Origin: Ignavibacteria bacterium
GTDB lineage: Bacteria; Bacteroidota; Ignavibacteria; Kapaibacteriales; Kapaibacteriaceae
Assembly: GCA_016707005.1 (NCBI GenBank)
Contig: JADJIQ010000002.1
Span: 741,527 to 805,526 of the forward strand
Direction: 5' to 3'
DNA: 64,000 nucleotides
Made by a program: the position numbers and the translations under genes
Notes under the pieces: model-generated
What the model saw: only the letters and a program-made list of their open reading frames with translations
What the model was told of the DNA's origin: nothing
The model's database searches: none
Shown: in pieces, positions 3,420 through 54,068 of the stretch
Position numbering within the stretch: position 1 is the stretch's first letter
Layout: each line of letters starts with the position of its first letter

Positions 3420-4456
3420 GCATGATCAACATCCGCCTCCTTTGTCCGTTTCCTCCTCCGTTTGGCGGTGTGGCGCTTCATTGCATTCGGCTCCTAGAGT
3501 CGTTGCGGGCTCATGGAACAGTGGCAACCGGACATTCTTTAGGGGGCGTTCCTGACAACGTTCAAGGCGTAACAAAGCTCGGACTTGGGTTCTTTCTCTC
3601 TCGCACCTTGGTTCATTATCACACCGATGAGGGGAATCATCGGTGGATGCGGTTGTTCTCACGGATCTGGCGGCTGACGCGCACGCCGTACGTTGTTACG
3701 GTACATTCATTCCGATATCGCGCTGAGTTTCAGGATCCTCGGGTGCTTCGCCAACTCTCCGTTGCATTTGCGCATGCCAAGGCTGTGATCGCAATCAGCT
3801 CGGAAGTTGCGGATGCCTTGGAGTCTACACTCGGCTTTCGACACAAACGCACTCGAGTTATTCCGTCGAATCTGCCCCTCAGTGCTTGGGAAGTAGCGTC
3901 GCCACTTCCGACTGATGTGGCAGAAGCTTGGCAACGTGCGCCGGTACGGATCCTTGCCAATGCCGGACGTGTTGTAGCGTATAACGGACGTGATCTGTAC
4001 GGGCTCGATGTACTTGTCTTAGCATTCAGTTCGATCCAAGATCCGGACTCTGCACTTTGCATTGCCGTTGGTGACGTGGTCGATACCGCTCTTTGGCAGA
4101 ACGTACTTGCCATGGCTTCGAATGATGCTCGCATCACCTTTGTGCGCAGCCTCAATGGTCCACTCGCCCCCTTCGTCCAGCACGCACACATTGTGGTTCG
4201 GCCTACACGTACGGAAGGCGGCCCTTCACTCACTCTCAGCGAAGCTCTCGAACTGGGCAGATGGGCTGTTGGGTCCGATGCCGTGCAGCGACCCGACGGT
4301 ACGGTGCTCTTCCGCAATGAAGACCCAGTCGATCTCTCGCGTGCTCTACATCAGTGCATCGCAGATGCACGGCGAGGCCATATGCCCCCGGCGATCACGC
4401 CGAATACCGACGCTGTAGAGAAAATCATGAATCTCTATCAGCGCGTATCAGTGTGA
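3416..4456 (+). CDS. glycosyltransferase family 4 (GT1-type fold)
   Basis: C-terminal GT4 motif IVVRPTRTEGGPSLTLSEALELGRWAVGSD; 4-nt overlap with upstream methyltransferase (operon). Confidence 0.7.
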   Translation: MSMINIRLLCPFPPPFGGVALHCIRLLESLRAHGTVATGHSLGGVPDNVQGVTKLGLGFFLSRTLVHYHTDEGNHRWMRLFSRIWRLTRTPYVVTVHSFRYRAEFQDPRVLRQLSVAFAHAKAVIAISSEVADALESTLGFRHKRTRVIPSNLPLSAWEVASPLPTDVAEAWQRAPVRILANAGRVVAYNGRDLYGLDVLVLAFSSIQDPDSALCIAVGDVVDTALWQNVLAMASNDARITFVRSLNGPLAPFVQHAHIVVRPTRTEGGPSLTLSEALELGRWAVGSDAVQRPDGTVLFRNEDPVDLSRALHQCIADARRGHMPPAITPNTDAVEKIMNLYQRVSV

Positions 4457-4458
4457 AG

Positions 4459-5292
4459 TCAGTTCTTCGTCAAAACCACACACACGCCGGCGGAGGTGTA
4501 GATCTTCATTCCGGACATGGAGATCGGCTTGTCGCTGTAGCTGCCGTGAGCCAGGGCATGTTTGACGGTATTCATTTGCAACAGCGTGCGTGAGATCTTG
4601 CCGAGTCCTGTCTTCCCAACAATGCGGTCGTTGAAGAATGGCTCTTCATAATCACCGAAGTAGACACGCTCCCGCTCAACAAGGCCGGAGGCTTTTACGA
4701 TGCGCTCATTGAATGATGCAACGTCGTAGTGACGTTGGAAGAAGACCGGCTTTGATGTGAACTTCTCGCCGTAGACATCCTGTTGAAGAAACCAATCGCG
4801 AGCGTGGCCTTCGTTCAAGGGAGTTGTAAGCAGATAGATGCCGCCTGGCTTGAGCAGTCGAGCGCTCTTCTCCATTGCGACGGAATCAAGAGCCCCTTCA
4901 AAATGTTCGATCACACTAATGTTGGTGATCACGTCGAATGATTCGGGCTCGAGTTCGGCTTCGAGGAAGTCGCGGACAACCACATGGAATCGCTTTGGGT
5001 CGAGGCCCAATTGCCGTGCGTATTCGTTCTGCTTCTCCACCCAATTGAACTTGTCGAGGCAGGTAACGTCCCAGTTGGTTTTACTGGCTACCCACGATGG
5101 AAAGATGGACGGGCCGGTGCCGATGTCGAGGTATCGAAGGGGCTTATCGAACAACGGCTGCAACTTTTCTGCCAGCAACGGCAGTTCAATGGCGCGCTCG
5201 TAGCCGAAACCTTTGATTCGATACAGAAATCGCAGTCGCTTTGCATGGGCATCGATGCTGCGAAGAAGTTCGGCATTGATAGTAGACATCAT
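4459..5292 (-). CDS. class I SAM-dependent methyltransferase
   Basis: Motif I LDIGTGPSIF and post-I LLKPGGIYLLTTP; 4-nt overlap with surE. Confidence 0.65.
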   Translation of the reverse strand: MMSTINAELLRSIDAHAKRLRFLYRIKGFGYERAIELPLLAEKLQPLFDKPLRYLDIGTGPSIFPSWVASKTNWDVTCLDKFNWVEKQNEYARQLGLDPKRFHVVVRDFLEAELEPESFDVITNISVIEHFEGALDSVAMEKSARLLKPGGIYLLTTPLNEGHARDWFLQQDVYGEKFTSKPVFFQRHYDVASFNERIVKASGLVERERVYFGDYEEPFFNDRIVGKTGLGKISRTLLQMNTVKHALAHGSYSDKPISMSGMKIYTSAGVCVVLTKN

Positions 5293-11660: not shown

Positions 11661-11734
11661 CGCGCCCAGCAGGATTCGAACCTGCGGCCCGCAGCTTAGA
11701 AGGCTGCTGCTCTATCCAACTGAGCTATGGGCGC
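11661..11734 (-). tRNA. tRNA-Arg (anticodon TCT)
   Basis: Cloverleaf on minus strand: GCGCCCATAGCTCAGTTGGATAGAGCAGCAGCCTTCTAAGCTGCGGGCCGCAGGTTCGAATCCTGCTGGGCGCG; anticodon loop CTTCTAA; GTTCGAATC T-loop. Confidence 0.85.
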
Positions 11735-11744
11735 AACACACGAA

Positions 11745-11880
11745 GTTACGGAGTTACGGAGTTACGGAGTTACGCAGTTACAGAGTTACGGGGTTACAGG
11801 GTTACGGGGTTACTCTAGCACTCAAACACTCTAGCAATCTCATTAGCACATTAACACACTAGCACATTAGCACATTAACT
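11745..11880. repeat. composite tandem-repeat array: GTTACGGA x about 8 followed by degenerate TAGCACTC / ATTAGCAC units
   Basis: Direct reading: gttacggagttacggagttacggagttacgcagttacagagttacggggttacagggttacggggttact then ctagcactc...ctctagcaatctcattagcacattaacacactagcacattagcacattaact; begins 10 nt from tRNA 5' end. Confidence 0.75.
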
Positions 11881-12123
11881 CGGGACTATCTCAAACGAAC
11901 TCAGCGCTTCGTCGATCACCAGGCGGACGGGGCCGTGCGGGGTAGGGAGGAGGTCGGGGTCTCCGTTTTCACCGCCGGAGAGGAAATGGGACTCTCTACG
12001 TATGTCAGACAGCCAGGCATAGAGGTCCGCGGACACTGCAACCTCCCGGGGTGCCTGTCCGTGTTCATCTACGTACCGTTCGATGGAGGCCATCAGCTCC
12101 TCGAAAGCATCGAACCATTCCAT
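11875..12123 (-). CDS. hypothetical small protein (82 aa)
   Basis: ORF only; stop codon lies inside the repeat (attaact); divergent from rpsA. Confidence 0.35.
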   Translation of the reverse strand: MEWFDAFEELMASIERYVDEHGQAPREVAVSADLYAWLSDIRRESHFLSGGENGDPDLLPTPHGPVRLVIDEALSSFEIVPS

Positions 12124-14239: not shown

Positions 14240-15538
14240 ATGGACCTGAAACCCATTCTTGATGAATTGTTCGCGATGACGTTCCATGCCGGCATCAGAC
14301 CCGGCTTGGAGCGCATCACGGAGCTGTGCTCGCACCTTGATGAACCACATCTGCGCTATCCCGTCATCCACGTTGCCGGCACAAATGGCAAGGGCTCTAC
14401 CTGCTCCATGTTAGCCTCGATCCTCACCCACGCCGGGTACAAGGTTGGCCTCTACACCTCGCCGCACATCAGGCAGTTCAACGAACGTATTCGCATCAAC
14501 GGTACAATGATCTCCGATGAGGACGTGGCTCGTCTGGCTCGCCCCTTAATGGACCAGGCAAAGTCGTTCGGTGGAACGTTCTTTGAGGTCACCACAGCAA
14601 TGGCATTCCAATACTTTGCCGAGCGCAGAGTTGAGGTTGCGATCATTGAGACGGGGCTTGGCGGACGTTTTGATGCAACGAACATCGTACAGCCATTCCT
14701 GAGCATCATCACGCAGATCGATATCGACCACACGGAATACCTCGGCACAACACTTCCGCAGATCGCCGGCGAAAAGGCCGGGATCATCAAACAGGGGGCT
14801 CCTGTCGTGATCGGACATCGTTCCGGCATTGTGGTAAATGGACGGCCCGTTCCCGACATCCGAGATGTCTTCGTTCGTAAGGCAGAGTCCGCCAATACTC
14901 CGATCTCGTTCGCAGAAGACACGATCTATGTGGAAATGGATGCGATCCACCCCGACCTTACGATGACGGTGAGTGTTACGAATGACGCGGATCGCAAGTA
15001 CTACACAACCGACCTCTGTGGTCAGCATCAAACGAGCAACATCGCCACAGTGATCGCTGCCCTGCCGGCCATCAGTGAACTGTACTTCGTCGAAGAGCCA
15101 CACATACGAGAAGGACTGCTTCGCGTGAAGTCAACCTCTGGACTTTACGGACGATGCGACCTCATCAATGTAGATCCTTTCACAGTGATCGATGTATCGC
15201 ACAATCCCGGAGGCATTGCTGCCCTGCGAGACACGCTCATCGCCTCCGGCAAAACGCCGAACAGCATGCAGGTGGTCTTTGGTGCGATGTCCGATAAGGA
15301 CGTGGCTGGTATGATCGACGCCATCGCCCCGCTTGCACACACCCTACACCTATGCTCTCCTGCTCTCCCGCGCGCCCTTGCTGTGGAAGAGCTCCTCAAC
15401 CTGGCCCTGTCACGAGGCATCATGAACGCCGTAGCCCATTCGAGCGTGGCTCACGCCTACAAGGCAGCAATAGCTCATGGCCCAACCGTTGTGTGCGGGA
15501 GTTTCCATGTGATCGATGAAGTCATGCTAATGTGCTAA
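14240..15538 (+). CDS. folC: folylpolyglutamate synthase / dihydrofolate synthase
   Basis: P-loop VIHVAGTNGKGST, Mur-ligase family body; start moved to ATG at 14240 (MDLKPILDELF) right after terminator; last 4 codons and TAA stop lie inside ATGTGCTA repeat. Confidence 0.8.
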   Translation: MDLKPILDELFAMTFHAGIRPGLERITELCSHLDEPHLRYPVIHVAGTNGKGSTCSMLASILTHAGYKVGLYTSPHIRQFNERIRINGTMISDEDVARLARPLMDQAKSFGGTFFEVTTAMAFQYFAERRVEVAIIETGLGGRFDATNIVQPFLSIITQIDIDHTEYLGTTLPQIAGEKAGIIKQGAPVVIGHRSGIVVNGRPVPDIRDVFVRKAESANTPISFAEDTIYVEMDAIHPDLTMTVSVTNDADRKYYTTDLCGQHQTSNIATVIAALPAISELYFVEEPHIREGLLRVKSTSGLYGRCDLINVDPFTVIDVSHNPGGIAALRDTLIASGKTPNSMQVVFGAMSDKDVAGMIDAIAPLAHTLHLCSPALPRALAVEELLNLALSRGIMNAVAHSSVAHAYKAAIAHGPTVVCGSFHVIDEVMLMC

Positions 15539-15880
15539 TGTGCTAATGTGCTAATGTGCTAATGTGCTAATGTGCTAATGTGCTAATGTGCTAATGTGCT
15601 AATGTGCTAATGTGCTAATGTGCTAATGTGCTAATGTGCTAATGTGCTAATGTGCTAATGTGCTAATGTGCTAATGTGCTAATGTGCTAATGTGCTAATG
15701 TGCTAATGTGCTAATGTGCTAATGTGCTAATGTGCTAATGTGCTAATGTGCTAATGTGCTAATGTGCTAATGTGCTAATGTGCTAATGTGCTAATGTGCT
15801 AATGTGCTAATTTCGTGTATTAGCTCGTTAGCTAATTAGCACATTAGCACATTAGCACATTAGCACATTAGCACATTAAC
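15524..15880. repeat. foldback tandem array: ATGTGCTA x about 36 (15524-15810), 22-bp spacer, inverted ACATTAGC x 5 (15833-15880)
   Basis: Direct reading; right arm is exact reverse complement unit of left arm; array ends on the base before purH ATG. Confidence 0.9.
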
Positions 15881-25043: not shown

Positions 25044-26536
25044 GCCTCCCAACAACGATCGGCGAGCTGAAGGCAGCAGGATATCAATACGAGTCTGTGA
25101 AGGACGAGCTACGTCGCAACGTGATCGAACGACTGCGAACCAACACGCCCATCTTCTCCGGCATCATCGGATTCGATGACACCGTGATACCGCAGATCGT
25201 GAACGCCATTCTTGCAAAGCACGATATTCTCTTGCTCGGTCTACGCGGTCAGGCAAAGACGCGCATCGCACGTCAACTCACCACGCTACTCGACGAATTC
25301 ATCCCTGTTGTCAAGGGCTCCGAGATCAACGATCATCCGTTGCGCCCCGTGTCCTACCAGGCCGTGCAGCTCGTTGCCGAACACGGAGATGCTACACCGA
25401 TCGAATGGCGTCCGCGCGAGGAACGCTATGGCGAGAAGCTTGCAACTCCAGACGTTAGTGTGGCCGACCTCATCGGAGACATCGATCCGATCAAGGCTGC
25501 CTCGCAACGTCTGCATTATGCACATGAGGGCGCCATCCACTTTGGGATCATTCCGCGCTCCAACCGAGGCATCTTTGTCATCAACGAAGTACCCGATCTT
25601 CAGCCTCGCATTCAAGTAGCGTTGTTCAACATTCTACAAGAGCGCGATATTCAGATAAGGGGCTTTAATGTTCGCCTCCCGATGGACATCGTGATGGTGT
25701 TCACGGCCAACCCTGAAGACTACACCAATCGTGGATCCATCGTTACGCCACTTAAGGACCGCATTCAGTCGCAGATCCTCACGCACTATCCGCGCAGCAT
25801 CGAAGACGGCATGGCCATCACTGCACAAGAATCATGGGTTGAGCGCTCGGGAATGCCCCTTATCATCCCTACGTATCTCAGCCAGGTTGTTGAGTCCGTT
25901 GCCATGATCGCTCGCACGAGCGAATACATCGATCAAACCAGCGGCGTTAGTGCGCGACTCACCATCTCCACGATGGAGAACATGGTCTCCAATGCCGAAC
26001 GTCGCGCCTACATCACCGGCGAGATGATCGTAGCCCCCCGACTCTGCGACCTTGGTCAGGCACTTGCAGGCATCACCGGCAAGGTGGAACTCGTCTTTGA
26101 GGGCGAAGAAGAAGGACCGCAGAAGGTTGCACGAGCACTCATCGGCAAGGCCGTGCGCGAGGTCTTCCGTCTTTCCATGCCTGATCCGAATGTGCGCAGA
26201 GCTCGTAAGGGAACTGCTGAAGAGAAACCCGATCCCTATCAGGCCATCGTCCGGTGGTTCGAACAAGGTCACGTTGTGAACATCGATGACCGAATGACAA
26301 ACGAGGAATTCTACAACGCCCTCATCGCCGTCCCCACACTCGCTCAGCTCGCATCCGTCTCGTTCCATGTAGAGACGTCAGACACTATTCGTCTAGCAAC
26401 CGCTATGGAATTCATTCTGGATGCACTGCATCAACATTCCAAGCTTGCAAAAGACGACAACAGCATGCAGACCACGTACAGAGATCTGGTGGGAAGCATT
26501 TTTACGCCGCCTTTGTCGATGACAGAGGACGAATAG
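25040..26536 (+). CDS. AAA+ ATPase, Mg-chelatase/Lon-related N-domain-like (no protease domain)
   Basis: ATG overlaps ribE stop (ATGA); Walker A LLLGLRGQAKTRIARQL, Walker B GIFVINEVPDL, sensor region; architecture resembles N-terminal ATPase part of the Lon-related protein at 17425; stop TAG is first triplet of the TAGTTAC array. Confidence 0.5.
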   Translation: MSLPTTIGELKAAGYQYESVKDELRRNVIERLRTNTPIFSGIIGFDDTVIPQIVNAILAKHDILLLGLRGQAKTRIARQLTTLLDEFIPVVKGSEINDHPLRPVSYQAVQLVAEHGDATPIEWRPREERYGEKLATPDVSVADLIGDIDPIKAASQRLHYAHEGAIHFGIIPRSNRGIFVINEVPDLQPRIQVALFNILQERDIQIRGFNVRLPMDIVMVFTANPEDYTNRGSIVTPLKDRIQSQILTHYPRSIEDGMAITAQESWVERSGMPLIIPTYLSQVVESVAMIARTSEYIDQTSGVSARLTISTMENMVSNAERRAYITGEMIVAPRLCDLGQALAGITGKVELVFEGEEEGPQKVARALIGKAVREVFRLSMPDPNVRRARKGTAEEKPDPYQAIVRWFEQGHVVNIDDRMTNEEFYNALIAVPTLAQLASVSFHVETSDTIRLATAMEFILDALHQHSKLAKDDNSMQTTYRDLVGSIFTPPLSMTEDE

Positions 26537-26627
26537 TTACTAGTTACTGGTTACTAGTTACTAGTTACTGGTTACTGGTTACTAGTTACTAGTTACTGGT
26601 TACTAGTTACTGGTTACTATTTACTAG
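26534..26627. repeat. tandem array TAGTTAC / TGGTTAC x about 13 (left arm of 4HB cassette 1)
   Basis: Direct reading tagttactagttactggttactagttac... Confidence 0.85.
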
Positions 26628-26691
26628 GTCTGGCGAAGGAGAAGTTTATTGAGGCGTGTCACGTACTGACGTGTTGAGAGCACGTAGCAGG

Positions 26692-27090
26692 ATGGGTCAT
26701 GAACGAGATATCATAAAAGAGCGACTTGTCGCTAGTCCACTGCACATCCTTTCAATCGAGTTTTCTCGAGAGGTGCGCAGTCTTGTACGGAAGGCATTCC
26801 AACATCAGGTTGTTGAGCGAATGCCACTTGATCAACTGTATCGTTCGGGGTCCTCGGTTGGAGCGAATATCCGTGAGAGCAGATATGCAGAATCTCCAAA
26901 GGACTTTGTACATAAGCTCAAGATCGCGGAGAAAGAGCTGGGTGAATTCTTCTATTGGATTGGATTGCTGTCGTCGAAACACGACATTTTTGATGAAGAC
27001 GCTGCCGCTGCCTGCGTCAACAAAGGCACACAAGTCCAAAAGCTACTTTCTTCGATCATTGTAACAACGAAACGCAACAACAGTTTGTAA
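26692..27090 (+). CDS. four-helix-bundle protein (TIGR02436 / 23S rRNA intervening-sequence protein family)
   Basis: Family core ...VVERMPLDQLYRSGSSVGANIRESRYAESPKDFVHKLKIAEKELGEFFYWIGLL; first ATG at 26692 (ORF-track start 26656 is GTG). Confidence 0.65.
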   Translation: MGHERDIIKERLVASPLHILSIEFSREVRSLVRKAFQHQVVERMPLDQLYRSGSSVGANIRESRYAESPKDFVHKLKIAEKELGEFFYWIGLLSSKHDIFDEDAAAACVNKGTQVQKLLSSIIVTTKRNNSL

Positions 27091-27123
27091 TCTCTTACGA
27101 ATTGCAATTCAACGAGGTATGGT

Positions 27124-27152
27124 GTAACTAGTAACTAGAAACTAGTAACTAG
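27124..27152. repeat. inverted array GTAACTA x 4 (right arm of 4HB cassette 1)
   Basis: gtaactagtaactagaaactagtaactag = reverse complement of left-arm unit; ends 2 nt before stop codon of convergent peptidase gene. Confidence 0.85.
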
Positions 27153-31160: not shown

Positions 31161-32255
31161 ATGTCACAGTCACCCCGCACAATCCTGCTGATCGATGCTG
31201 ATGCATCGCGTCGCACTGAGACCGCCCGCCAGATCATGGTGCACGACGTTTCTGTCCTGCTGGCTTCAGACATGGTAACGGCACAATCCCTCGTACGCCA
31301 CCACCGGCCGTCAGCCGTGGTCGTCGATGCTGCCTTCATCCGGCAACCGGACCTGCGTGAAAAACTGTACATCCATGGCCTTAACATTGACACACCCTTC
31401 ATCGTCTTGGCAGACGAACGCGAGCCCCTTGCAGAGACATCAGCCCCGTATGGAGTGATCTCTCGTCCGCTCACCGACGCCGGCATTCAGTCTCTGCTCA
31501 CCATTCAAGGCCTGCCGGTATACGGCGAAACGCCTCCCTTGGTGAATCAGAATCAGTCCACACAGCCTTCCTTGTTGTATGCGCTGCCACACGAATATCG
31601 CACGCCACTGACGGACATCATCGGTCAGGCATCATTTCTTCACGGTCATGCCACAGAAGTTCCGGTAGAAGACATCCGCGACGTGAGTGCTGAGATCCTC
31701 TCCGCCGCCCGCAGATTGCTCCGCACAACAGACAACTTCCTCATGTATGCCCAGATCGAGACACTTGCCGAGAGTCCGCTCCATGTTGAGCGGATGCGTC
31801 AATGTACATCGCGCGAGCCAGCCATGATCGTCTACGACGCTGCGATCCAGCGTGCGTTGGCACATCAGCGTCAGGGCGACATGTCGGTTGCTCTTGATAT
31901 TGAGGGAGTGCCCCTTGCTATGATGGAGCAGCATCTCGACAAGATCATGACCGAACTCGTCGACAACGCCTTGTACTACAGTCGCCTTGGCACCCCGGTC
32001 AGCGTAAACGCCACCGCCACCACCCGCGACGTAGTCTTCACCATCCGCGACCACGGTGTTGGGATGCAAGAACAAGAACTCATGCAGATCGGCGCCTACC
32101 GTCAGTTCCGCCGTCAGTCACAGGAACAACAAGGCATCGGCCTTGGCCTCATCATAGCCAAGCGCCTCGTTGAACTCCACGGCGGAACGTTCACGGTAAG
32201 CAGCGCCTTGGGTATGGGGACGAGTGTGACGTTCTCGATACCTAGAGCCGCTTAG
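31161..32255 (+). CDS. hybrid response-regulator receiver / histidine kinase
   Basis: REC domain (ILLIDADASRR ... AVVVDAAF), H-box LPHEYRTPLTDI, HATPase_c (LVDNALYYS, IRDHGVGM, GIGLGLIIAKRLV); stop TAG at 32253. Confidence 0.7.
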   Translation: MSQSPRTILLIDADASRRTETARQIMVHDVSVLLASDMVTAQSLVRHHRPSAVVVDAAFIRQPDLREKLYIHGLNIDTPFIVLADEREPLAETSAPYGVISRPLTDAGIQSLLTIQGLPVYGETPPLVNQNQSTQPSLLYALPHEYRTPLTDIIGQASFLHGHATEVPVEDIRDVSAEILSAARRLLRTTDNFLMYAQIETLAESPLHVERMRQCTSREPAMIVYDAAIQRALAHQRQGDMSVALDIEGVPLAMMEQHLDKIMTELVDNALYYSRLGTPVSVNATATTRDVVFTIRDHGVGMQEQELMQIGAYRQFRRQSQEQQGIGLGLIIAKRLVELHGGTFTVSSALGMGTSVTFSIPRAA

Positions 32256-32389
32256 GCTTTTTAAGCGCCTTTGTAAGCGCCTTCTTCAAGCGCCTTTGTA
32301 AGCGCCTTTGTAAGCGCCTTCTTCAAGCGCCTTTGTAAGCGCCTTTGTAAGCGCCTTTGTAAGCGCCTTCTTCAAGCGCCTTTGTAAGC
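32256..32389. repeat. tandem array of 12/13-bp units AAGCGCCTTTGT / AAGCGCCTTCTTC x about 10 (left arm of 4HB cassette 2)
   Basis: Direct reading. Confidence 0.85.
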
Positions 32390-32440
32390 TGAGTCACGTT
32401 TAAGGGTTGTGAGAGTACGAAGAGGTTTTAGGGGAACCCT

Positions 32441-32899
32441 ATGTCTCTTCTTCAACTCCGCATGTATAAACGGGCCGGCGAGATCTCTGATGAGGTTGCT
32501 CTGTTTGCAAGTGCATGGCCGCACATCCATCGGAACACGATCGGAGATCAGATCATTAGAGCGGCGGATTCGATCTCAAACAACATTGCTGAAGGGTATG
32601 GCAGAACAGCAACAGGAGAACGCATCCAGTTTCTGATGTATGCCGATGGCTCGATCTCAGAAACAAGAAACTGTCTACATAGAGCATTCGGCCGGAACCT
32701 CATCGACGCAGACACCAACGCTCGACTTCAACAGCGCCTCGTATCATTGTCGATTAGTATCGTAGAGTTCGCACATGCTATAATTGAAAGAGACCCATCA
32801 TACAAGGGTCCATTCCGCGAACGAATCGCAAAACGCCGCGCCTGGCTTGTGAAGAAGCTCGCCAAGAACGGCGCAGCTCCCCCAAACGAACAATCTTAA
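32441..32899 (+). CDS. four-helix-bundle protein (TIGR02436 / 23S rRNA intervening-sequence protein family)
   Basis: Canonical family motif ...IIRAADSISNNIAEGYGRTATGERIQFLMYADGSISETRNCLHRAF...; ATG start; 152 aa. Confidence 0.8.
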   Translation: MSLLQLRMYKRAGEISDEVALFASAWPHIHRNTIGDQIIRAADSISNNIAEGYGRTATGERIQFLMYADGSISETRNCLHRAFGRNLIDADTNARLQQRLVSLSISIVEFAHAIIERDPSYKGPFRERIAKRRAWLVKKLAKNGAAPPNEQS

Positions 32900-33160
32900 A
32901 GAAGGCGCTTGCAGAAGGCGCTTGCAGAAGGCGCTTGAATAAGGCGCTTGAATAAGGCGCTTGAACAATGCGCTTGAACAAGGCGCTTGAACAAGGCGCT
33001 TGAACAAGGCGCTTGAACAAGGCGCTTGAACAAGGCGCTTGAACAAGGCGCTTAACGAAGGCGCTTAGAGAAGGCGCTTGAACAAGGCGCTTAGAGAAGG
33101 CGCTTGAACAAGGCGCTTGAACAAGGCGCTTAACGAAGGCGCTTGCAGAAGGCGCTTACA
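32900..33160. repeat. inverted tandem array of 13-bp units (A/G)AAGGCGCTTGAAC and variants x about 20 (right arm of 4HB cassette 2)
   Basis: Reverse complement GTTCAAGCGCCTT matches left-arm unit family; last unit overlaps the pcrA stop codon (cttaca). Confidence 0.85.
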
Positions 33161-35468
33161 AAGCCTCCAGCCTAGCAAACGCAACCATCAACTGCTTCCT
33201 TTGACCGTTATCAAACAGCACGGTGGCCTTTTCACTCTGACCTGTGCCGCTTACGGAGCTGATGGTGCCGGCGCCGAACATGGGGTGTTTGACGCGCTGA
33301 CCTACCTTGACGGATGAAGGGCCTTCTGGGGCCGGACCTTGCACGCCACGGGCCTTGGGTTGGCTGACGCTGGTATAGCGCTTTGGCATTGGCAGCTGTG
33401 AATACGACTCACCCTGCGCCACCTGAGAATACGAGGATTGTTTTGGTGATGAGGGGGCTGTTCGTGGCGCTGCTTCCCGTGCATTGTTGCCGGTCATACT
33501 GCGTGCAGATGGTGCAAGGGTGTCCTTGTCGATCTCACCTAAGAACATGGATGGACGGGAGAAGACGAGTTCGCCAAAACGGTACCGACGTTCTGCGTAG
33601 GAAAGAACGAGCTGCTCACGTGCGCGTGTGATGCCCACATAAAGGAGTCTGCGTTCTTCCTCCTGCTCCATCATGTCGGTCTCTGCCTTTGCCAACGGGA
33701 ACAAACCTTGTTCGAGTCCGGCAATAACAACGAGGGGAAACTCAAGCCCCTTAGCAGCATGCATGGTCATCATGGCGATACGTTCTGTTCCAAGCTTTGG
33801 ATCATCAGCATCACTGAGCAAGGCGATCTGCTCGAGGTAGTTGATGAGGGTCATGTTCTCATCAAGCTCTTGCTGCTCGGCGATGTGATCGAGGAGACGT
33901 TCAATGTTGTTCCATCGATCGAGTGCTTCTTCCGACTGTTGAAGCTTGTACATCTGGGGGAGCCCCGTTGCCTCGATATAGGCCTGGGCAAGTGATGCAG
34001 GAGCAAGCTCGGGCATCATCTCCTGGTAACGAGCGATGATCCCAACGAAGTCCTTGACGGCCTTTGCCGTGCGGGCCTGCATCATGGGGACGGTTTCGAT
34101 GTTTGATAGGACTTCGAAGACCGGACTGTTGGTTCGGACAGCAAACTCTTGAACGCGTTCAAGGGTTGTAGCGCCAATACCACGCGCAGGCTCATTGATG
34201 ACGCGGAGGATGCTCTCGGTGTCGTTGGGGTTGACGAGGAGTCGCAGATAGGCGAGGACGTCTTTCACTTCCTTACGCTTATAGAAACTCACTCCGCTCA
34301 CGATATGGTATGGAGTGTTCCCTCTACGCAGTGCATCTTCCAATGCTTGCGATTGAGCGTTGGTGCGATACAGAATGGCCACGTCCTTGTACGAGTATCC
34401 GTACTTCTCAACGCGTGAACGTATCGTCCGTGCGATCATGTCGGCTTCTTCGCGGTCATCTCTGCACGCAAGAACAGTGATCTTTTCGCCTTCGATGTTG
34501 TCGGTGAAGAGCGACTTCTTCAGCTGCTTGGTGTTGCGCTTGATCACGCTATCTGCCGCCGCAAGAATGGTCTTGGTTGACCGGTAGTTTTGCTCGAGAC
34601 GGACAACCTTTGATTCGGGATAGTCGCGCTCAAAGTCGAGGATGTTGCGGATATCCGCACCACGCCACCGGTAGATACTCTGCGCGTCATCGCCCACAAC
34701 ACAAAGGTTGCGGTACTTCCGCGCCAACATCGTCACCACTTGATACTGTGCACGGTTGGTGTCTTGATACTCATCCACCAGCAGATATCGGAATCTATCC
34801 TGCAACGACTCGAGCACGTCGGGATGATGTTCAAGAAGTCTGATGGTATTGAGCAACAGATCATCAAAGTCCATCGCATTACTCTGCGCCAGACGTTTCT
34901 CGTACTCCTCAAAGATCTGTCCGGTCTGCTTCTCAAGAACAGAGTCTGCACTTCGCACATACTCCTGCCACGAGATCATGGAGTTCTTCGCACTCGAGAT
35001 CCGTCCACGTACACCATTCACCGGCACAACCTGCTGCGAAACACCAAGCTGATTCATCACAGCCTTGATCGCTGCGGCTTGATCGTCGGTATCGTAGATC
35101 GTGAACGATGATGTGTAGCCGATCCTATCAGCGAACTGACGAAGGATCCTTGCGAACACCGAGTGGAATGTACCGGCCATCATTGATCGTGCTATGCCCC
35201 CTCCCACAAGATGAGAGATGCGTTCCTTCATCTCCTGGGCGGCCTTGTTGGTAAAGGTCAGCGCAAGAACGTGAGATGGGTTCACACCCAAACGCAAAAG
35301 GTAGGCGATGCGGAAGGTGAGAACGCGTGTTTTACCGGAGCCCGCACCGGCAATGATGAGGACCGGACCTTCTGTGGTGCTCACGGCTTCTGCTTGAGCG
35401 GCGTTGAGTCCGTTGAGAAGATCACCGGCCGGCGTGCCATCACCCATTGGCGTTAGAGTAAGGGTCAT
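33156..35468 (-). CDS. pcrA: ATP-dependent DNA helicase PcrA/UvrD
   Basis: LNAAQAEAVSTTEGPVLIIAGAGSGKTRVLTFRIAYLL and all UvrD helicase motifs; 770 aa. Confidence 0.85.
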   Translation of the reverse strand: MTLTLTPMGDGTPAGDLLNGLNAAQAEAVSTTEGPVLIIAGAGSGKTRVLTFRIAYLLRLGVNPSHVLALTFTNKAAQEMKERISHLVGGGIARSMMAGTFHSVFARILRQFADRIGYTSSFTIYDTDDQAAAIKAVMNQLGVSQQVVPVNGVRGRISSAKNSMISWQEYVRSADSVLEKQTGQIFEEYEKRLAQSNAMDFDDLLLNTIRLLEHHPDVLESLQDRFRYLLVDEYQDTNRAQYQVVTMLARKYRNLCVVGDDAQSIYRWRGADIRNILDFERDYPESKVVRLEQNYRSTKTILAAADSVIKRNTKQLKKSLFTDNIEGEKITVLACRDDREEADMIARTIRSRVEKYGYSYKDVAILYRTNAQSQALEDALRRGNTPYHIVSGVSFYKRKEVKDVLAYLRLLVNPNDTESILRVINEPARGIGATTLERVQEFAVRTNSPVFEVLSNIETVPMMQARTAKAVKDFVGIIARYQEMMPELAPASLAQAYIEATGLPQMYKLQQSEEALDRWNNIERLLDHIAEQQELDENMTLINYLEQIALLSDADDPKLGTERIAMMTMHAAKGLEFPLVVIAGLEQGLFPLAKAETDMMEQEEERRLLYVGITRAREQLVLSYAERRYRFGELVFSRPSMFLGEIDKDTLAPSARSMTGNNAREAAPRTAPSSPKQSSYSQVAQGESYSQLPMPKRYTSVSQPKARGVQGPAPEGPSSVKVGQRVKHPMFGAGTISSVSGTGQSEKATVLFDNGQRKQLMVAFARLEAL

Positions 35469-47808: not shown

Positions 47809-48593
47809 TGCGCCTCGCTACCGTACAGTTCTGTCCCGCGTACAGAGATCCGGATGCCAATACCGACTTCATTGTGGAGACCATTGCCAGTACTGAAGCG
47901 GACGTCATCGTCTTTCCCGAACTCGCCACCAGCGGATATTTCTTTGTCACCCGCGAAGAAGTAGGGGGCATTGCAGAGCCCCTTACCGGACCTCATATCA
48001 CCCGCATCATCAACGCTGCAAAAACTCACGGTCGCATAGTGATCTGCGGTTTTGCTGAGCGTGATGGAGACCGTCTCTTCAACTCAGCGGTGATTGCCGG
48101 ACCGAACATCGAAACACAGGTCTATCGCAAAACGCATCTGTTCTACAAGGAGACGCTGTGTTTTGACGAGGGCGATAGCGGTTTCTCCGTTGTTCATCTA
48201 CCCCATCTCGATTGCAATCTCGGCGTGATGATCTGCTACGACTGGCGTTTTCCTGAAAGTGCCCGGACCCTTGCACTCAAGGGAGCTGACGTGATCGCCT
48301 GCCCATCAAACCTCGTCACCCACATCTGGCGCATGGCCATGCCCGTACGCGCCCTCGAGAACAAGGTCTACCTGGCAGTGGCCAACCGCTACGGCACAGA
48401 ATCCAACACCGAAGAAGACGTCACCTTCAACGGCCAAAGCGTGATCTACTCCTACAACGGAGACGTACTGGCAAGCGCCGATGCAGTTGGCACAACCACA
48501 CTCATCACCGAGATCGACCCCACCGCCACCCGCAACAAGACATTCAATTCTGTTAATGACATCCTTGCCGATCGCCGCCCAGAGAGATACTAG
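47805..48593 (+). CDS. carbon-nitrogen hydrolase (nitrilase superfamily)
   Basis: Glu in FPELATSGY, Lys, Cys in ICYDWRFPE; ATGA overlap with PAP2 gene; stop TAG is first triplet of the downstream repeat. Confidence 0.8.
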   Translation: MMRLATVQFCPAYRDPDANTDFIVETIASTEADVIVFPELATSGYFFVTREEVGGIAEPLTGPHITRIINAAKTHGRIVICGFAERDGDRLFNSAVIAGPNIETQVYRKTHLFYKETLCFDEGDSGFSVVHLPHLDCNLGVMICYDWRFPESARTLALKGADVIACPSNLVTHIWRMAMPVRALENKVYLAVANRYGTESNTEEDVTFNGQSVIYSYNGDVLASADAVGTTTLITEIDPTATRNKTFNSVNDILADRRPERY

Positions 48594-48717
48594 TTACTGG
48601 TTACTAGTTACTGGTTACTAGTTACTTGTAACTGGTAACTGGTAACTACTAACTAGTAACTAGTAACTAGTAACTGGCAACTAGTAACTAGTACTTAGTA
48701 ACTAGTAACTTGCAACT
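48591..48717. repeat. foldback tandem array: TAGTTAC/TGGTTAC x 5 then inverted TNGTAAC x about 13, no cargo
   Basis: Direct reading; centre at about 48626; ends on base before murC ATG; same unit family as array at 26534. Confidence 0.9.
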
Positions 48718-50085
48718 ATGACGTTTTCCTCCGTTCGACACATCCACTTCGTTGGCATTGGTGGCATTGGCATGAGCGGGATCGCCGAGATCCTTCTTTC
48801 GCAGGGGTTTGTTGTCAGTGGCTCAGACCTTAACCGAAGTGAAGTAACGGACCACCTTGCAACTCTTGGGGCGCGCATCTGCATTGGGCATGATGCACAA
48901 CACGTAGATAACGCCGAGGTAGTGGTCTACTCCAGTGCCGTTCGTCCACAGGAGAACCCCGAGACGTTGTTCGCCTTGGAGCGCAAGATCCCGATCATCC
49001 GTCGGGCAGAGATGCTCAGCGAGGTCTCCCGACTGAAGTATTGTCTGGCCATTGCCGGCACTCACGGCAAGACAACCACCACGTCCATGTGTGGCATCGT
49101 GATGATGAAGGCTGGCATGGACCCAACGGTCATTGTTGGCGGACGTCTCAAGGGACTTGGTGGCACGAATGCCCGGCTTGGACAGGGCGACTGGATCGTA
49201 CTCGAGGCCGATGAATACGACCGTTCCTTCCTCCAGCTCTTGCCCACCATTGCTGTGATCACGAATGTAGAGGCGGATCACCTTGACATCTATAGTGACC
49301 TCGACGATATAAAGGGGGCGTTCATCGAGTTCTCAAACAAGGTGCCGTTCTATGGCACTGCAGTGGTCTGCTTAGATGATCCGGGCGTGCGCGCCATCCT
49401 GCCGTCCATCAAACGGGTGGTTGTCACCTACGGCATGTCTGCGCAGTGTGATGTGCGCGCTGCAGACATCAGCTACAACGAACGCTCCTCCACCTATACA
49501 CTCGTACACAAGGGGAGCCCCCTTGGAGAGATCGAGCTTCACGTACCGGGTGACCACAACGTCCGCAATTCCCTTGCTGCTTGCGCAACTGCTCTTTTGT
49601 GCGGTGTTCCGTTCGATGTGATCAGGGATGGTCTTGCAGAGTTCGGAGGCGTGTTCCGTCGGTTCGAAGTCAAGGGAGAGGTAGGGGGCATCCTGGTCGT
49701 AGACGACTATGCCCACCACCCTACCGAGATCCGCTCAACGCTCACCGCGGCCCGACGTGGTTGGAAGCGTCGGATCGTTGCCGTGTTCCAGCCGCACACC
49801 TATACCCGAACCAGGGATTTCTACGCCGAGTTCGCCACTTCCTTTGACGAGGCCGATGTTTTGATCCTCACAGACGTTTATCCGGCACGCGAAGAGCCAA
49901 TTCCGGGGGTCAATGGGAAGCTTATCGCGGACGCTGCCAGGGATGCCGGACACCGCAACGTGCACTATGTAGAAGCGCCTGCAGACATCCCGGCACTGCT
50001 CAAGACCCTGGTTTTGGAGGGCGATATGGTGCTCACAATGGGTGCCGGAGATATATGGAAAGTAGGGTCGGCACTGCTCGCCTGA
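48718..50085 (+). CDS. murC: UDP-N-acetylmuramate--L-alanine ligase
   Basis: HFVGIGGIGMSGIAEIL and Mur ligase motifs. Confidence 0.9.
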   Translation: MTFSSVRHIHFVGIGGIGMSGIAEILLSQGFVVSGSDLNRSEVTDHLATLGARICIGHDAQHVDNAEVVVYSSAVRPQENPETLFALERKIPIIRRAEMLSEVSRLKYCLAIAGTHGKTTTTSMCGIVMMKAGMDPTVIVGGRLKGLGGTNARLGQGDWIVLEADEYDRSFLQLLPTIAVITNVEADHLDIYSDLDDIKGAFIEFSNKVPFYGTAVVCLDDPGVRAILPSIKRVVVTYGMSAQCDVRAADISYNERSSTYTLVHKGSPLGEIELHVPGDHNVRNSLAACATALLCGVPFDVIRDGLAEFGGVFRRFEVKGEVGGILVVDDYAHHPTEIRSTLTAARRGWKRRIVAVFQPHTYTRTRDFYAEFATSFDEADVLILTDVYPAREEPIPGVNGKLIADAARDAGHRNVHYVEAPADIPALLKTLVLEGDMVLTMGAGDIWKVGSALLA

Positions 50086-52288: not shown

Positions 52289-53577
52289 AAAGCCCCATGC
52301 GCACACTCAACATCTTCTTCATGTGCCTCCTTGTACTTGGCATCCCTACCTCTGTTTGGGCCCAAGACTCCATGGAAGGTATCATTGCCATCGTTGGTCG
52401 TGAGATCGTTCTCAAGTCCGATGTAGACGGTCAGATGGAGATGTTGGCCCAGCGTGATCCGCGCGTAGACCGCAAGGACGTCAAACTGCGTCAAGCAATC
52501 CTCGATCAGCTCATCAACGAGCGCCTCATCATGACCAAGGCCATAGAGGACAGCATTGAGGTAACAGATGAAGAGATCACGCAGCGCATGGAATATCAGA
52601 TCCAAACACTGATCCAGCAATTCGGCTCAGAGAAGCGTATCGAAGACATGTACGGCATGAGCATGATGCGCATCCGACGTGAATTCCGCGATGAGATCCG
52701 CAAACGTCTTCTCGTGGAGAAGATGCAACAGAAGCAATTCGGTCAGGTCAAGGCCTCCCGTGCAGATGTGGAAGCGTTCTACGCCAAATACCGCGACTCC
52801 TTGCCTAAGGTACCGGAACGTGTAGACCTCTTCCACATCGTGAAGTACGTGAAGGCCTCCGACGAAAAGAACAAGGAAGCATACACCCTTGCCATGCGTA
52901 TCAGAGACTCCATCGTAAAAGGGGGCTCCTTCAGCGACTTCGCACGCAGGTATTCCGGAGATCCGATCTCTGCATCGAACGGTGGCGACCTCGGAACCGT
53001 TGATCGCGGCAAATTTGTCCCGGCTTTCGAAACCGCTGCATTCAACCTGTCCCCTGATGAGATCTCTCAACCAGTCGAGACGCCGTTCGGATGGCACGTT
53101 ATTCAGCTCATCAGCAAGACAGCAACCTCGATGACTGCGCGACACATCCTCATTCGCGTAGGTCAGAGCGACGAAGACCGAGAACGCGTTAAGACCGAAC
53201 TCGTTGCACTCAAACAACGTGTTGAAAAGGGCGAGAACTTTGAGACACTCGCTCGTGAATTCAGTGATGAAAAAGAGACCCAAGGCTTCGGTGGATCAAT
53301 GGGTCAGATCGAACTCGCCCGTCTTCCGGAAGAGATGCAAACATCTCTCAATGCCATGAAGGACGGTGCTGTCTCCGACCCTTCACCGTATGCCGCAGAC
53401 CCAACTAAGCCCGGCTTCCACATCCTCTACCGCAAGCGCATCATCCCTGCTCACACCCCGTCCGTCGACGAAGACTACAAACAACTCGAACAAATGGCAT
53501 CCTTCGAAAAGAAGCAACGCCTCGAACAAGAGTGGGTGCAGAAGCTGCGGAAAGAGTTGTATTGGGAAACGCGTTAG
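52285..53577 (+). CDS. surA: SurA-type chaperone / peptidyl-prolyl isomerase
   Basis: Signal peptide MKSPMRTLNIFFMCLLVLGIPTSVWAQ; SurA N-domain plus two parvulin domains (FGWHVIQLI, GFHILYRK); ATGA overlap; stop TAG is in the repeat. Confidence 0.75.
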   Translation: MKSPMRTLNIFFMCLLVLGIPTSVWAQDSMEGIIAIVGREIVLKSDVDGQMEMLAQRDPRVDRKDVKLRQAILDQLINERLIMTKAIEDSIEVTDEEITQRMEYQIQTLIQQFGSEKRIEDMYGMSMMRIRREFRDEIRKRLLVEKMQQKQFGQVKASRADVEAFYAKYRDSLPKVPERVDLFHIVKYVKASDEKNKEAYTLAMRIRDSIVKGGSFSDFARRYSGDPISASNGGDLGTVDRGKFVPAFETAAFNLSPDEISQPVETPFGWHVIQLISKTATSMTARHILIRVGQSDEDRERVKTELVALKQRVEKGENFETLAREFSDEKETQGFGGSMGQIELARLPEEMQTSLNAMKDGAVSDPSPYAADPTKPGFHILYRKRIIPAHTPSVDEDYKQLEQMASFEKKQRLEQEWVQKLRKELYWETR

Positions 53578-53618
53578 AGTGCTAGAGTGCTAGATTGTTA
53601 GAGTGCTAGATTGTTAGA
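53573..53618. repeat. tandem array of units TAGAGTGCTAGATTGT x about 3 (arm of 4HB cassette 3)
   Basis: gttagagtgctagagtgctagattgttagagtgctagattgttag. Confidence 0.85.
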
Positions 53619-53621
53619 CCC

Positions 53622-53990
53622 TCATCTGGTTTTTGGGGGTCGTTGTTGATTGCGAACTGCGGTAGATATAGACGAACTCATCAGCCGTCCAAGCTCATCA
53701 AGAAGACCATCGATCGTTTGTTTCCATGAGCTTGGCACTCCATTTCTTTCGGTGAAATGGATAGAGAGAGATTCGGCTTCTCGTAACTCCTTATGAGCAA
53801 GCTTCAGTTTGTGTATGAGGTCTCGCCGACTTTGGCAGCTCTGCGCTTCAGAGATGTTATTCATGACAGCTAGGGCGACACCCTCCGTCTGATTTCCAAG
53901 ACGAAACAGATGTTGACTGTTTACGATCCTCACAACTTCTAACAGATAGATCGATAACAGACGCGATTTTATCATTGATGGGGACGTCAT
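53622..53990 (-). CDS. four-helix-bundle protein (TIGR02436-like, divergent)
   Basis: ...NSQHLFRLGNQTEGVALAVMNNISEAQSCQSRRDLIHKLKLAHKELREAESL aligns with the NIAEG...F..L.IA.GS..E motif region of the other two copies; track start 54032 is a GTG inside the repeat, first ATG at 53990. Confidence 0.55.
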   Translation of the reverse strand: MTSPSMIKSRLLSIYLLEVVRIVNSQHLFRLGNQTEGVALAVMNNISEAQSCQSRRDLIHKLKLAHKELREAESLSIHFTERNGVPSSWKQTIDGLLDELGRLMSSSISTAVRNQQRPPKTR

Positions 53991-54024
53991 CCTTCTATGT
54001 GCTACTAACACCACAGAACGTGAC

Positions 54025-54068
54025 TCTAGCACTCTAACAATCTAGCACTCTAACAATCTAGCACTCTA
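54025..54068. repeat. inverted array CTCTAGCACTCTAACAAT x about 2.5 (other arm of 4HB cassette 3)
   Basis: Exact reverse complement of 53573 array unit; ends 6 nt before stop of OMP gene. Confidence 0.85.

Follow-up and report, generated by a model that had tools for sequence, protein, structure and literature searches.

The stretch of DNA analyzed here, referred to below as the window, comprises 64,000 nucleotides (nt) of contig JADJIQ010000002.1 from an Ignavibacteria bacterium and carries three genes coding for small four-helix-bundle (4HB) proteins of the PF05635/TIGR02436 family. The subject of this analysis is the second of these genes, which lies between a histidine kinase (HK) gene and pcrA and is enclosed by inverted arrays of a 12/13-bp tandem unit. 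We refer to the gene together with its arrays, or arms, as cassette 2 and to the equivalent structures around the other two genes as cassettes 1 and 3. Cassette 2 consists of the following features (TRF, Tandem Repeats Finder; dN/dS, ratio of nonsynonymous to synonymous substitution rates):

32257..32389, plus strand: upstream arm, about 10.8 units, each AAGCGCCTT followed by TGT or CTTC (TRF, core and spacer counts)
32393..32422, plus strand: promoter-like leader, GTCACG-N17-TACGAAG, within the arms and 48 nt 5' of the ATG
32441..32899, plus strand: 4HB gene, 152 aa (Pfam, NCBIfam, PDB 2GSC, structural model and fold search, dN/dS)
32902..33163, plus strand: downstream arm, about 20 units, each AAGGCGCTT followed by a 4-nt spacer (TRF, inverted-repeat pairs)

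TRF reports the upstream array at 32257-32389 with a period of 12, 10.8 copies, and a score of 190 and the downstream array at 32902-33157 with a period of 13, 19.7 copies, and a score of 375. Exact AAGCGCCTT cores occur 10 times in the former and exact AAGGCGCTT cores 19 times in the latter, and 29 of the 30 core occurrences in the window fall inside cassette 2. The arms are mutually inverted (89 inverted pairs of up to 31 nt, with 94% complementarity), which bears out the proposal of a first-pass annotation of this DNA that the terminal inverted repeats enclosing the gene are tandem arrays in their own right. The arrays closely abut the surrounding genes: the HK open reading frame (ORF) ends at 32255 and the upstream array sets in 2 nt past its stop codon, the downstream array begins 2 nt past the 4HB stop codon, and the pcrA stop codon (33156-33158, minus strand) falls within the last downstream unit, as that annotation had it. 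The cassette 2 unit CTTTGTAAGCGC includes the last codons and the stop codon of pcrA, an overlap that may have arisen either because the array was seeded locally or through microhomology at the junction of an insertion. The assignment of both arms to one unit family is true of the 9-bp core, which is the only part that they have in common, but not of the 3- to 4-nt spacers. These form nonoverlapping sets, namely, TGT (seven times) and CTTC (three times) in the upstream arm and, read as the reverse complement, GTTC (10 times), CTGC (three times), and CGTT, CTCT, and ATTC (twice each) in the downstream arm. In an RNA minimum-energy fold of the cassette, which the annotation had called for, the arms pair with each other around the ORF (z = -13.9).

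The protein encoded between the arms matches PF05635 (E = 2e-22) and TIGR02436 (E = 5e-21) and no other Pfam family. Its AlphaFold model (pLDDT of 93.5) is a four-helix bundle with a fifth, C-terminal helix, and the top structural matches of the model are XCC0516 (PDB 2GSC, matched both by sequence and by fold, with a TM score of 0.9), BT_0352 (2RLD), and Avd (4DWL and 8UBE), a protein of diversity-generating retroelements (DGRs). The fifth helix (residues 125-144, window positions 32813-32872) is basic, contains the sequence YxGPFRERIAKRRAW, and is found in the cassette 2 subfamily only, other members of the family being devoid of it. The gene is under strong purifying selection, with a dN/dS of 0.08 between the window and its close relative L009 and of 0.02 to 0.16 in four other lineages.

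The leader motif, GTCACG-N17-HACDWRG, occurs three times in the window, once before each 4HB gene, against an expectation of 0.04. It is conserved as tGTCACG-N17-(g)CAC-A in 13 of 13 Kapabacteria-type cassettes, and its distance from the ATG, which varies between 34 and 62 nt, matches the behavior of a promoter with a short or absent 5' untranslated region (UTR). A scan of the cassette for sigma-70 promoters and intrinsic terminators found nothing beyond the shuffled background, so that an alternative sigma factor would be required. Transcription from a leader in this position, internal to the arms, would yield an mRNA of the gene that bears the downstream arm only.

Genes within about 6 kb of cassette 2 code for the HK, PcrA, a Zn-ribbon protein, TrpS, an outer-membrane protein, an M28 peptidase, and similar proteins; no reverse transcriptase domain and no cas gene is found among them. 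This neighborhood bears on the idea that the arrays belong to a known repeat system, such as a CRISPR array or the template and variable repeats (TR and VR) of a DGR, or are an artifact of assembly. Although PF05635 genes have been reported within cas loci and operons (PMC3936711) and Avd is itself a DGR component, we find this idea hardly credible. Where a CRISPR array would have unique spacers of about 25 to 40 nt, the cores here are separated by 3 to 4 nt of few variants, and the only repeats present are the inverted 12/13-bp-unit arrays, with no direct TR/VR pair and no reverse transcriptase gene nearby. Moreover, no PADLOC defense model matches any of the three 4HB proteins of the window, and the structure recurs in independent assemblies.

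Inverted arrays around 4HB genes in many phyla

The PF05635/TIGR02436 family is very numerous, with a single query retrieving more than 2,000 protein clusters. By scanning species-representative genomes, we obtained 80 4HB loci, which belong to Bacteroidota, Verrucomicrobiota, Planctomycetota, Cyanobacteria, Patescibacteria, Desulfobacterota, Nitrospirota, and others. TRF arrays were detected on both sides of the gene at 25 of these loci, on one side at 37, and on neither at 18, and arrays cover 10.6% of the 300-nt flanks against 0.70% of the rest of the same loci, a 15-fold enrichment that speaks against a random placement of arrays relative to 4HB genes. At least five inverted 9-mers are common to both flanks at 75% of the loci, compared with 3% of shifted controls (P = 3e-32), and direct 9-mers are common to both flanks at 8%. 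At most loci, (GTCATTN)n or (GTTCATTN)n makes up the upstream flank, the reverse complement makes up the downstream one, and the TGA stop codon of the 4HB gene is often the first TGAC of the downstream array. The GT(T)CA[TC] core is strand polar (1.8 to 2.4 versus 0.3 per 150 nt), and the GT(T)CAT unit recurs across phyla. Within 222 kb of Kapabacteria sequence, nine of nine 4HB genes lie in arrays. The inverted-array layout is family-wide and extends over many phyla, with cassette 2 as one example of it. The earlier suggestion that the element may be new has thus to be narrowed: we found no published description of it, but it is one instance of an architecture that belongs to the family as a whole.

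Homologues of the cassette 2 protein (54 to 80% identity), found in Kapabacteria and in a Verrucomicrobia-labeled metagenome-assembled genome (MAG), are flanked by units that differ from locus to locus (e.g., CGCTTCGCGGCGGGAAGC, GGGACGTAAGAT, and AAGGGAGTTAGGA) but are always inverted, and the same is true of homologues of the cassette 1 protein. The arms were complementary to each other at every locus examined, despite the locus-specific units. That the unit sequence follows the protein lineage can be ruled out in these two subfamilies, where homologues of 46 to 80% identity have unrelated units and where the only features that track the protein are the leader and the length of the unit. The period is 12 to 18 bp in the five-helix cassette 2 type and 7 to 8 bp in the rest of the family (P = 0.004).

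These regularities can be viewed in terms of iterated operators, with the arms acting as iterons bound cooperatively by a 4HB oligomer that represses or loops its own promoter, the gene being an ordinary resident whose absence elsewhere results from deletion. A conserved core with variable spacers, the correlation of the period with the protein subfamily, and the position of the promoter-like leader next to the upstream arm would all be expected of such a system. Small proteins are known to bind contiguous heptads or 11-bp repeats cooperatively, as do the omega repressor of pSM19035 and ParR on parC. Nevertheless, operators explain neither the inversion of the arrays nor the scattered gene-less hairpins of the same units (see below) nor the family members inside rRNA, and they fit poorly with close homologues that have unrelated units; we therefore regard this account as distinctly unlikely.

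The arrays typically extend from the stop codon of one neighboring gene to the start codon of the next and are able to rewrite the C termini of neighboring genes. Array units can encode the last residues of a neighbor, as in the folC-like gene described below, or of the 4HB protein itself: the tail of the protein past the fifth helix is variable and, at L009 and L012, is encoded by array units. At one locus (L095), a 21-bp-period array (310-399) lies in frame within an ORF that reads as hutI-like and is translated as SPVPSTL/SPVPSTS repeats, and its inverted partner (1099-1160) sets in at the TAG stop codon of the ORF. Coding sequence is thus open to array invasion if the period is a multiple of three.

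Arrays with and without a gene in the window and in relatives

Apart from cassette 2, the window contains two further cassettes and three arrays without a 4HB gene:

26534..27152, plus strand: cassette 1, with (TAGTTAC)x13, leader 26658-26687, 4HB gene (probable ATG 26695, stop 27090), and (GTAACTA)x4
53575..54068, minus strand: cassette 3, with arm 54023-54068 (ACTCTAGC), leader 53995-54024, 4HB gene 53622-53990, and arm 53575-53618 (TAGAGTGC)
48589..48718, unstranded: gene-less hairpin array, (TAGTTAC)x5 abutting (GTAACTA)x12; DNA fold z = -7.5
15525..15878, unstranded: gene-less hairpin array, (TGCTAATG)x36, a short spacer, and inverted (ATTAGCAC)x7.5; DNA fold z = -16
11740..11877, unstranded: composite one-sided array, (ACGGAGTT)x9, (ACTCTAGC)x3.6, and (CATTAGCA)x4.6, beside a tRNA gene (11661-11734, minus strand)

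The inverted-array layout is present at all three PF05635 4HB genes of the window, with different units at each, in agreement with the expectation that other 4HB genes would likewise be flanked by arrays. The gene-less arrays at 48.6 and 15.5 kb fold as near-perfect hairpins. The former spans the whole spacer from a CN-hydrolase (nitrilase-like) gene, which ends in TAG, to the ATG of murC, and its unit mix is identical to that of the cassette 1 arms; the palindrome measures 124 nt in all full assemblies of the species, without polymorphism, and short-read contigs break there. The latter, in which the 36 TGCTAATG units show 100% identity, lies between purH, 2 nt before the ATG of which it ends, and a folC-like gene (a label read from the sequence), and its units encode the last residues of the folC-like protein (...MLMC*) together with the stop codon. 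Two of the unit families in the composite array are also found at cassette 3 and in the 15.5-kb array. Unit families thus recur at separate loci, and paralogous 4HB genes of one genome carry different units that are found again at gene-less arrays. In another Kapabacteria genome (L177), a 4HB gene has the ACGGAG-type unit of the composite array at its flanks. Between this array and rpsA lies an 82-aa ORF (11875-12123, minus strand), the stop codon of which abuts the array; it has no significant family match (best Pfam E = 0.029).

With PcrA as the anchor, we located the pcrA-HK site in relatives of the window species as follows:

L009, PcrA ~90%: site with a cassette, the arms of which have a related 24-bp double unit and the gene of which is in the opposite orientation
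L100, PcrA 85%: site without a cassette, spacer of 61 nt
L096, PcrA 72%: site without a cassette, spacer of 72 nt
L097 and L098, PcrA 72%: inverted 12-bp-unit arrays (AAGTAGGT.../ACCTACTT...) with the gene absent; hairpin fold z = -8.1
L101, PcrA 69%: site without a cassette, spacer of 11 nt
L099, PcrA 67%: site without a cassette, spacer of 11 nt

The polymorphism among relatives for which the first-pass annotation had asked is therefore present, the site being empty, occupied by arrays only, or occupied by a flipped gene. A flipped 4HB gene is also seen when L012 is compared with L015. The cassette 1 site is empty in L096 and L099 and has only a single one-sided 8-bp-unit array in L100; conversely, the site between the aldo-keto-reductase and rpe genes holds a cassette in L179 but none in the window species. 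In L016, a cassette 2-type 4HB gene (4001-4444) adjoins the M28 peptidase gene in the orientation opposite to that of the cassette 1-type gene of the window. The two cassette types at this M28-adjacent site are about 16% identical and their arms differ, and the site is either a hotspot or one at which cassettes replace each other. Among locus pairs with two-sided synteny, 55 have the same orientation and 5 are flipped; these pairs are not independent, many of them coming from one Bacteroidota cluster. At the site shared by that cluster, the cassette is always cooriented (L021, L028, L043, L045, L047, L054, L057 to L059, L064, L067, L069, L071, L072, and L085), which points to a very old and stable residence within an operon. 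Judged from the junction sequences, the neighbors at this site are apparently thyA and folA.

Within the species, at least eight assemblies, which comprise MAGs and metagenome contigs and include at least one from wastewater, code for the exact 4HB protein of cassette 2; close homologues of this protein are labeled Candidatus Kapabacteria or Ignavibacteria in their source records. The arms vary in repeat number, with 6 to 10 cores upstream and 11 to 20 downstream, although short-read assembly is the source of some of the shorter versions, in which the repeats may have been collapsed. The order of the spacer variants also differs in L004 and L005. The arms of cassette 2 gain and lose units in the manner of a variable-number tandem repeat.

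Such freely varying copy numbers could be taken as a sign that the arrays are a functionless by-product: 4HB genes would land in terminator hairpins, the inverted repeats of which expand by slippage and are homogenized by template switching. Quasi-palindromes are known to mutate by template switching from one arm to the other. Local seeding is suggested by the pcrA codons within CTTTGTAAGCGC and by the array unit of L098, which is similar to its own pcrA terminus, and arrays invade wherever they are tolerated, even in frame within the L095 ORF. However, identical unit families at separate loci of one genome (TAGTTAC at 26.5 and 48.6 kb) cannot all be locally seeded, and a neutral origin does not account for the recurrence of the GT(T)CAT unit across phyla with fixed polarity or for a 15-fold enrichment specific to the surroundings of the 4HB family. 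One and the same site can also hold different cassettes with different arms, and in-locus controls suggest that other inserted small genes are not equally embedded in inverted arrays. On balance, we consider a purely neutral origin quite improbable.

Relation to known elements

The intervening sequences (IVSs) of 23S rRNA have been recognized since about 1990. The resemblance of cassette 2 to these elements, which gave the protein family its name, was pointed out in the first-pass annotation and is borne out by closer comparison. In the IVSs of the Leptospira, Coxiella, and Xanthomonas type, a protein of the same PF05635/S23p family is encoded in the loop of a stem formed by terminal inverted repeats. 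In the Coxiella IVS, inverted repeats form a 28-bp stem with the S23p ORF in its loop, and RNase III cuts this stem and so excises the element; the IVS even carries two to three tandem heptamers beside the ORF, their number varying among strains; its origin and mobility are stated to be unknown, and it is seen as a selfish element (PMC4990558). Unlike the IVSs, which occupy helix 25 or 45 of 23S rRNA, cassette 2 is intergenic between protein-coding genes, and no rRNA is found in the window, the RNA genes of which are one tRNA and one signal recognition particle RNA. Its arms are 130 to 260 bp of iterated units in contrast to the 28-bp stem of Coxiella, and its gene has a promoter-like leader of its own and evolves under strong purifying selection, unlike the Coxiella copy, which is decaying. 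On the basis of this comparison, we read cassette 2 as an intergenic element of the IVS type, distinguished by the strong iteration of its arms, with the 23S rRNA IVS as its closest known counterpart. A search of the full-text literature, with subscription journals and family notes outside its reach, retrieved no link of PF05635, TIGR02436, or S23p to flanking arrays beyond the Coxiella heptamers, and the family-wide association of gene and arrays is thus apparently undescribed.

The likeness to eukaryotic foldback (FB) transposons, also raised in the first-pass annotation, stands as far as form is concerned. FB elements likewise have long terminal inverted repeats made of tandem subrepeats, with arms of unequal and variable length, and some copies with internal genes alongside others that are bare arms. 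Cassette 2 is bacterial, however, and has neither a transposase nor a definable target-site duplication, so the analogy goes no further than form.

In its genomic pattern, the 4HB system most resembles the repetitive extragenic palindromes (REPs), their paired form (REPINs), and the associated RAYT genes, but without the nuclease domain. Both consist of dispersed intergenic hairpin-forming inverted repeats with lineage-specific sequences, and in both, the associated gene is flanked by the repeats in inverted orientation, is chromosomal, and is mostly inherited vertically. The 4HB protein, in contrast, is a four-helix bundle without an HUH/Y1 nuclease motif (PF05635 is its sole Pfam match), and its repeats are tandem 7- to 18-bp units rather than the single 20- to 40-nt palindromes of REPs.

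Avd has the same fold as the 4HB protein, its structures 4DWL and 8UBE ranking with the closest fold matches, and the VR and TR repeats of the Bordetella phage DGR enclose the avd gene. Cassette 2 differs in having no reverse transcriptase gene nearby and no adenine-specific variation, and its repeats are inverted tandem arrays and not a direct 100- to 150-bp TR/VR pair.

Proposed maintenance of the arms and possible role of the 4HB protein

We tentatively favor, as possible though somewhat short of probable, a combined reading in which hairpin cassettes of the IVS type are widespread and cassette 2 is one of them, with the 4HB gene and its promoter-like leader in the loop. The length of the arms would change via replication slippage, and their complementarity would be kept by arm-to-arm exchange, either recombination or template switching, with the same exchange flipping the gene. 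A pentameric, nucleic acid-binding 4HB protein might bind the iterated stem by its geometry rather than by its exact sequence and, in a manner reminiscent of RAYTs and REPINs, act both on its own arms and on gene-less copies, so that gene and arrays stay together. In read-through transcripts, the arms would form a stem of more than 100 bp, which, by analogy with the rRNA IVSs, RNase III may cut, thereby insulating the neighboring genes from the insert.

Several of the above observations together suggest that the 4HB protein acts physically on the arrays: the embedding of the gene is near universal, and the unit length tracks the protein subfamily; the core is conserved while the spacers vary, and paralogues have their own unit families; gene-less arrays carry the units of these paralogues, and the protein is under purifying selection; and the protein shares its fold with Avd, which is one of the subunits of the DGR reverse transcriptase ribonucleoprotein. 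Weighing against the combined reading are the following points. Proteins that are 60 to 80% identical have unrelated units, which argues against sequence-specific binding and makes binding by geometry likelier than recognition of an exact sequence. We know of no catalytic or DNA-binding activity in stand-alone members of the 4HB family. The tie of arrays to 4HB genes, strong as seen from the genes, is looser as seen from the arrays, since 27 of the 44 arrays in the 222 kb of Kapabacteria sequence have no 4HB neighbor, some of them being gene-less hairpins. Of transposition, we found no sign. The 4HB gene is the sole ORF in every cassette examined, and there is no transposase; no direct repeat is seen at the outer edges of the cassette that would mark a target-site duplication, the empty sites of L096, L099, L100, and L101 being too diverged for base-by-base alignment. 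The cassette 2 gene is present and identical in eight of eight assemblies of the species, and this fixation, together with the stable coorientation in Bacteroidota, indicates that mobility is slow at best. A single weak match was found among 72,556 plasmids, so that plasmids are no obvious vector. Finally, the leader inside the arms permits the full stem in read-through transcripts only, and the test of RNA-level selection described next was negative.

Selection for pairing in the sense RNA would be expected to leave G-U-biased mismatches and a sense stem more stable than its antisense counterpart. Across 60 loci, however, sense and antisense stems were equally stable (34 versus 26, P = 0.30), and their G-U contents were equal. 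Each of the three window cassettes leans to the sense strand, with units that are not independent observations. In cassette 2, the G-U asymmetry of 12 versus 1 arises because the downstream-arm unit AGGCGCUU (32902-33157) is self-complementary through two G-U pairs as sense RNA but not as antisense RNA or DNA; the 3' UTR of the gene's mRNA could accordingly fold as a chain of small hairpins. No known RNA family was matched at threshold, the score of HgcE (20.6 bits versus a gathering score of 50) being attributable to chance. The negative strand test and the internal leader make DNA-level processes at least as likely to maintain the arms, the candidates being slippage, recombination or template switching between the arms, and the formation of hairpins or cruciforms.

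The same results bear on the view that the gene is a passenger between RNA-level insulators, that is, that the arms serve as an RNase III substrate and bidirectional terminator, while the protein has an unrelated job and never touches them. Direct precedent exists in the rRNA IVSs, the predicted stem is strong, complementarity persists while the sequence drifts, and cassettes sit tight against stop codons and often between convergent genes, all of which such insulators would explain; a role in transcript stabilization has also been proposed for the hairpins of cyanobacterial short tandemly repeated repetitive sequences (STRRs) (PMC2670836). Yet neither the stability nor the G-U content of the stems is biased toward the sense strand at the 60 loci, and the leader lies inside the arms. 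Insulation also leaves unexplained both the relation of unit length to protein subfamily and the cross-phyla GT(T)CAT core, and it gives no reason why one particular gene family should be embedded. We hence see this view as rather unlikely, if still a serious contender.

The combined reading can be extended beyond the individual cassette. Stand-alone 4HB (S23p/Avd-like) proteins may be the trans-acting partners of a phylum-spanning class of hairpin arrays that takes in the cyanobacterial STRRs, the Xanthomonas heptamers, and the arrays of this window, with each protein binding its cognate arrays and helping to maintain or propagate them, in the way of RAYTs and REPINs but as a pentameric nucleic acid binder that is not a nuclease. 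In that case, the rRNA IVSs would be copies lodged in rRNA hairpin tips and Avd a domesticated descendant. We put this extension forward as a doubtful but attractive conjecture. STRRs have consensus units such as TTGGTCA, and the first report of them is said to date from 1990. Like the Xanthomonas heptamers, they are intergenic tandem units, often in inverted hairpin-forming pairs, with copy numbers that differ between relatives. The gene-less arrays of the window are of the same kind, and cassette 1 and the 48.6-kb array even have 7-bp units; the cassette 2 unit differs in being 12/13 bp long, and the host is a Kapabacteria bacterium and not a cyanobacterium. The first report of intergenic heptamer arrays, as cited in PMC4692102, came from a cyanobacterium. 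The Xanthomonas heptamers were catalogued genome-wide by Rehm et al. in 2015 without a link to any gene, and no function is given there for their inverted pairs (PMC4692102).

The systematic embedding of 4HB genes in inverted arrays connects three things, namely, PF05635/TIGR02436 proteins, several of which have solved structures but none a known function; intergenic heptamers such as the STRRs and the GGGAATC repeats of Xanthomonas, which have been catalogued for decades without a known function; and the 23S rRNA IVSs. The arrays also have practical consequences, in that they break short-read assemblies, can be mistaken for CRISPR-like repeats, and yield hypervariable markers. The connection is experimentally approachable through the solved structures of XCC0516 and BT_0352 and through tractable hosts (Xanthomonas, Bacteroides, Nostoc, and Pedobacter). 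In Nostoc (L081), the 4HB gene is likewise flanked by heptamers. In Xanthomonas campestris (L190), a 4HB gene (2429-2872) is located within the accB-accC operon, between the two genes; it is 85% identical to the crystallized XCC0516, as measured over the solved segment, and is flanked by (CGGGAAT)x4.4 and (CCCATTC)x4.3, which are inverted heptamers of the GGGAATC type. About 1.5 kb downstream of this gene, a 97-bp unit is tandemly repeated 4.9 times (4358-4827).

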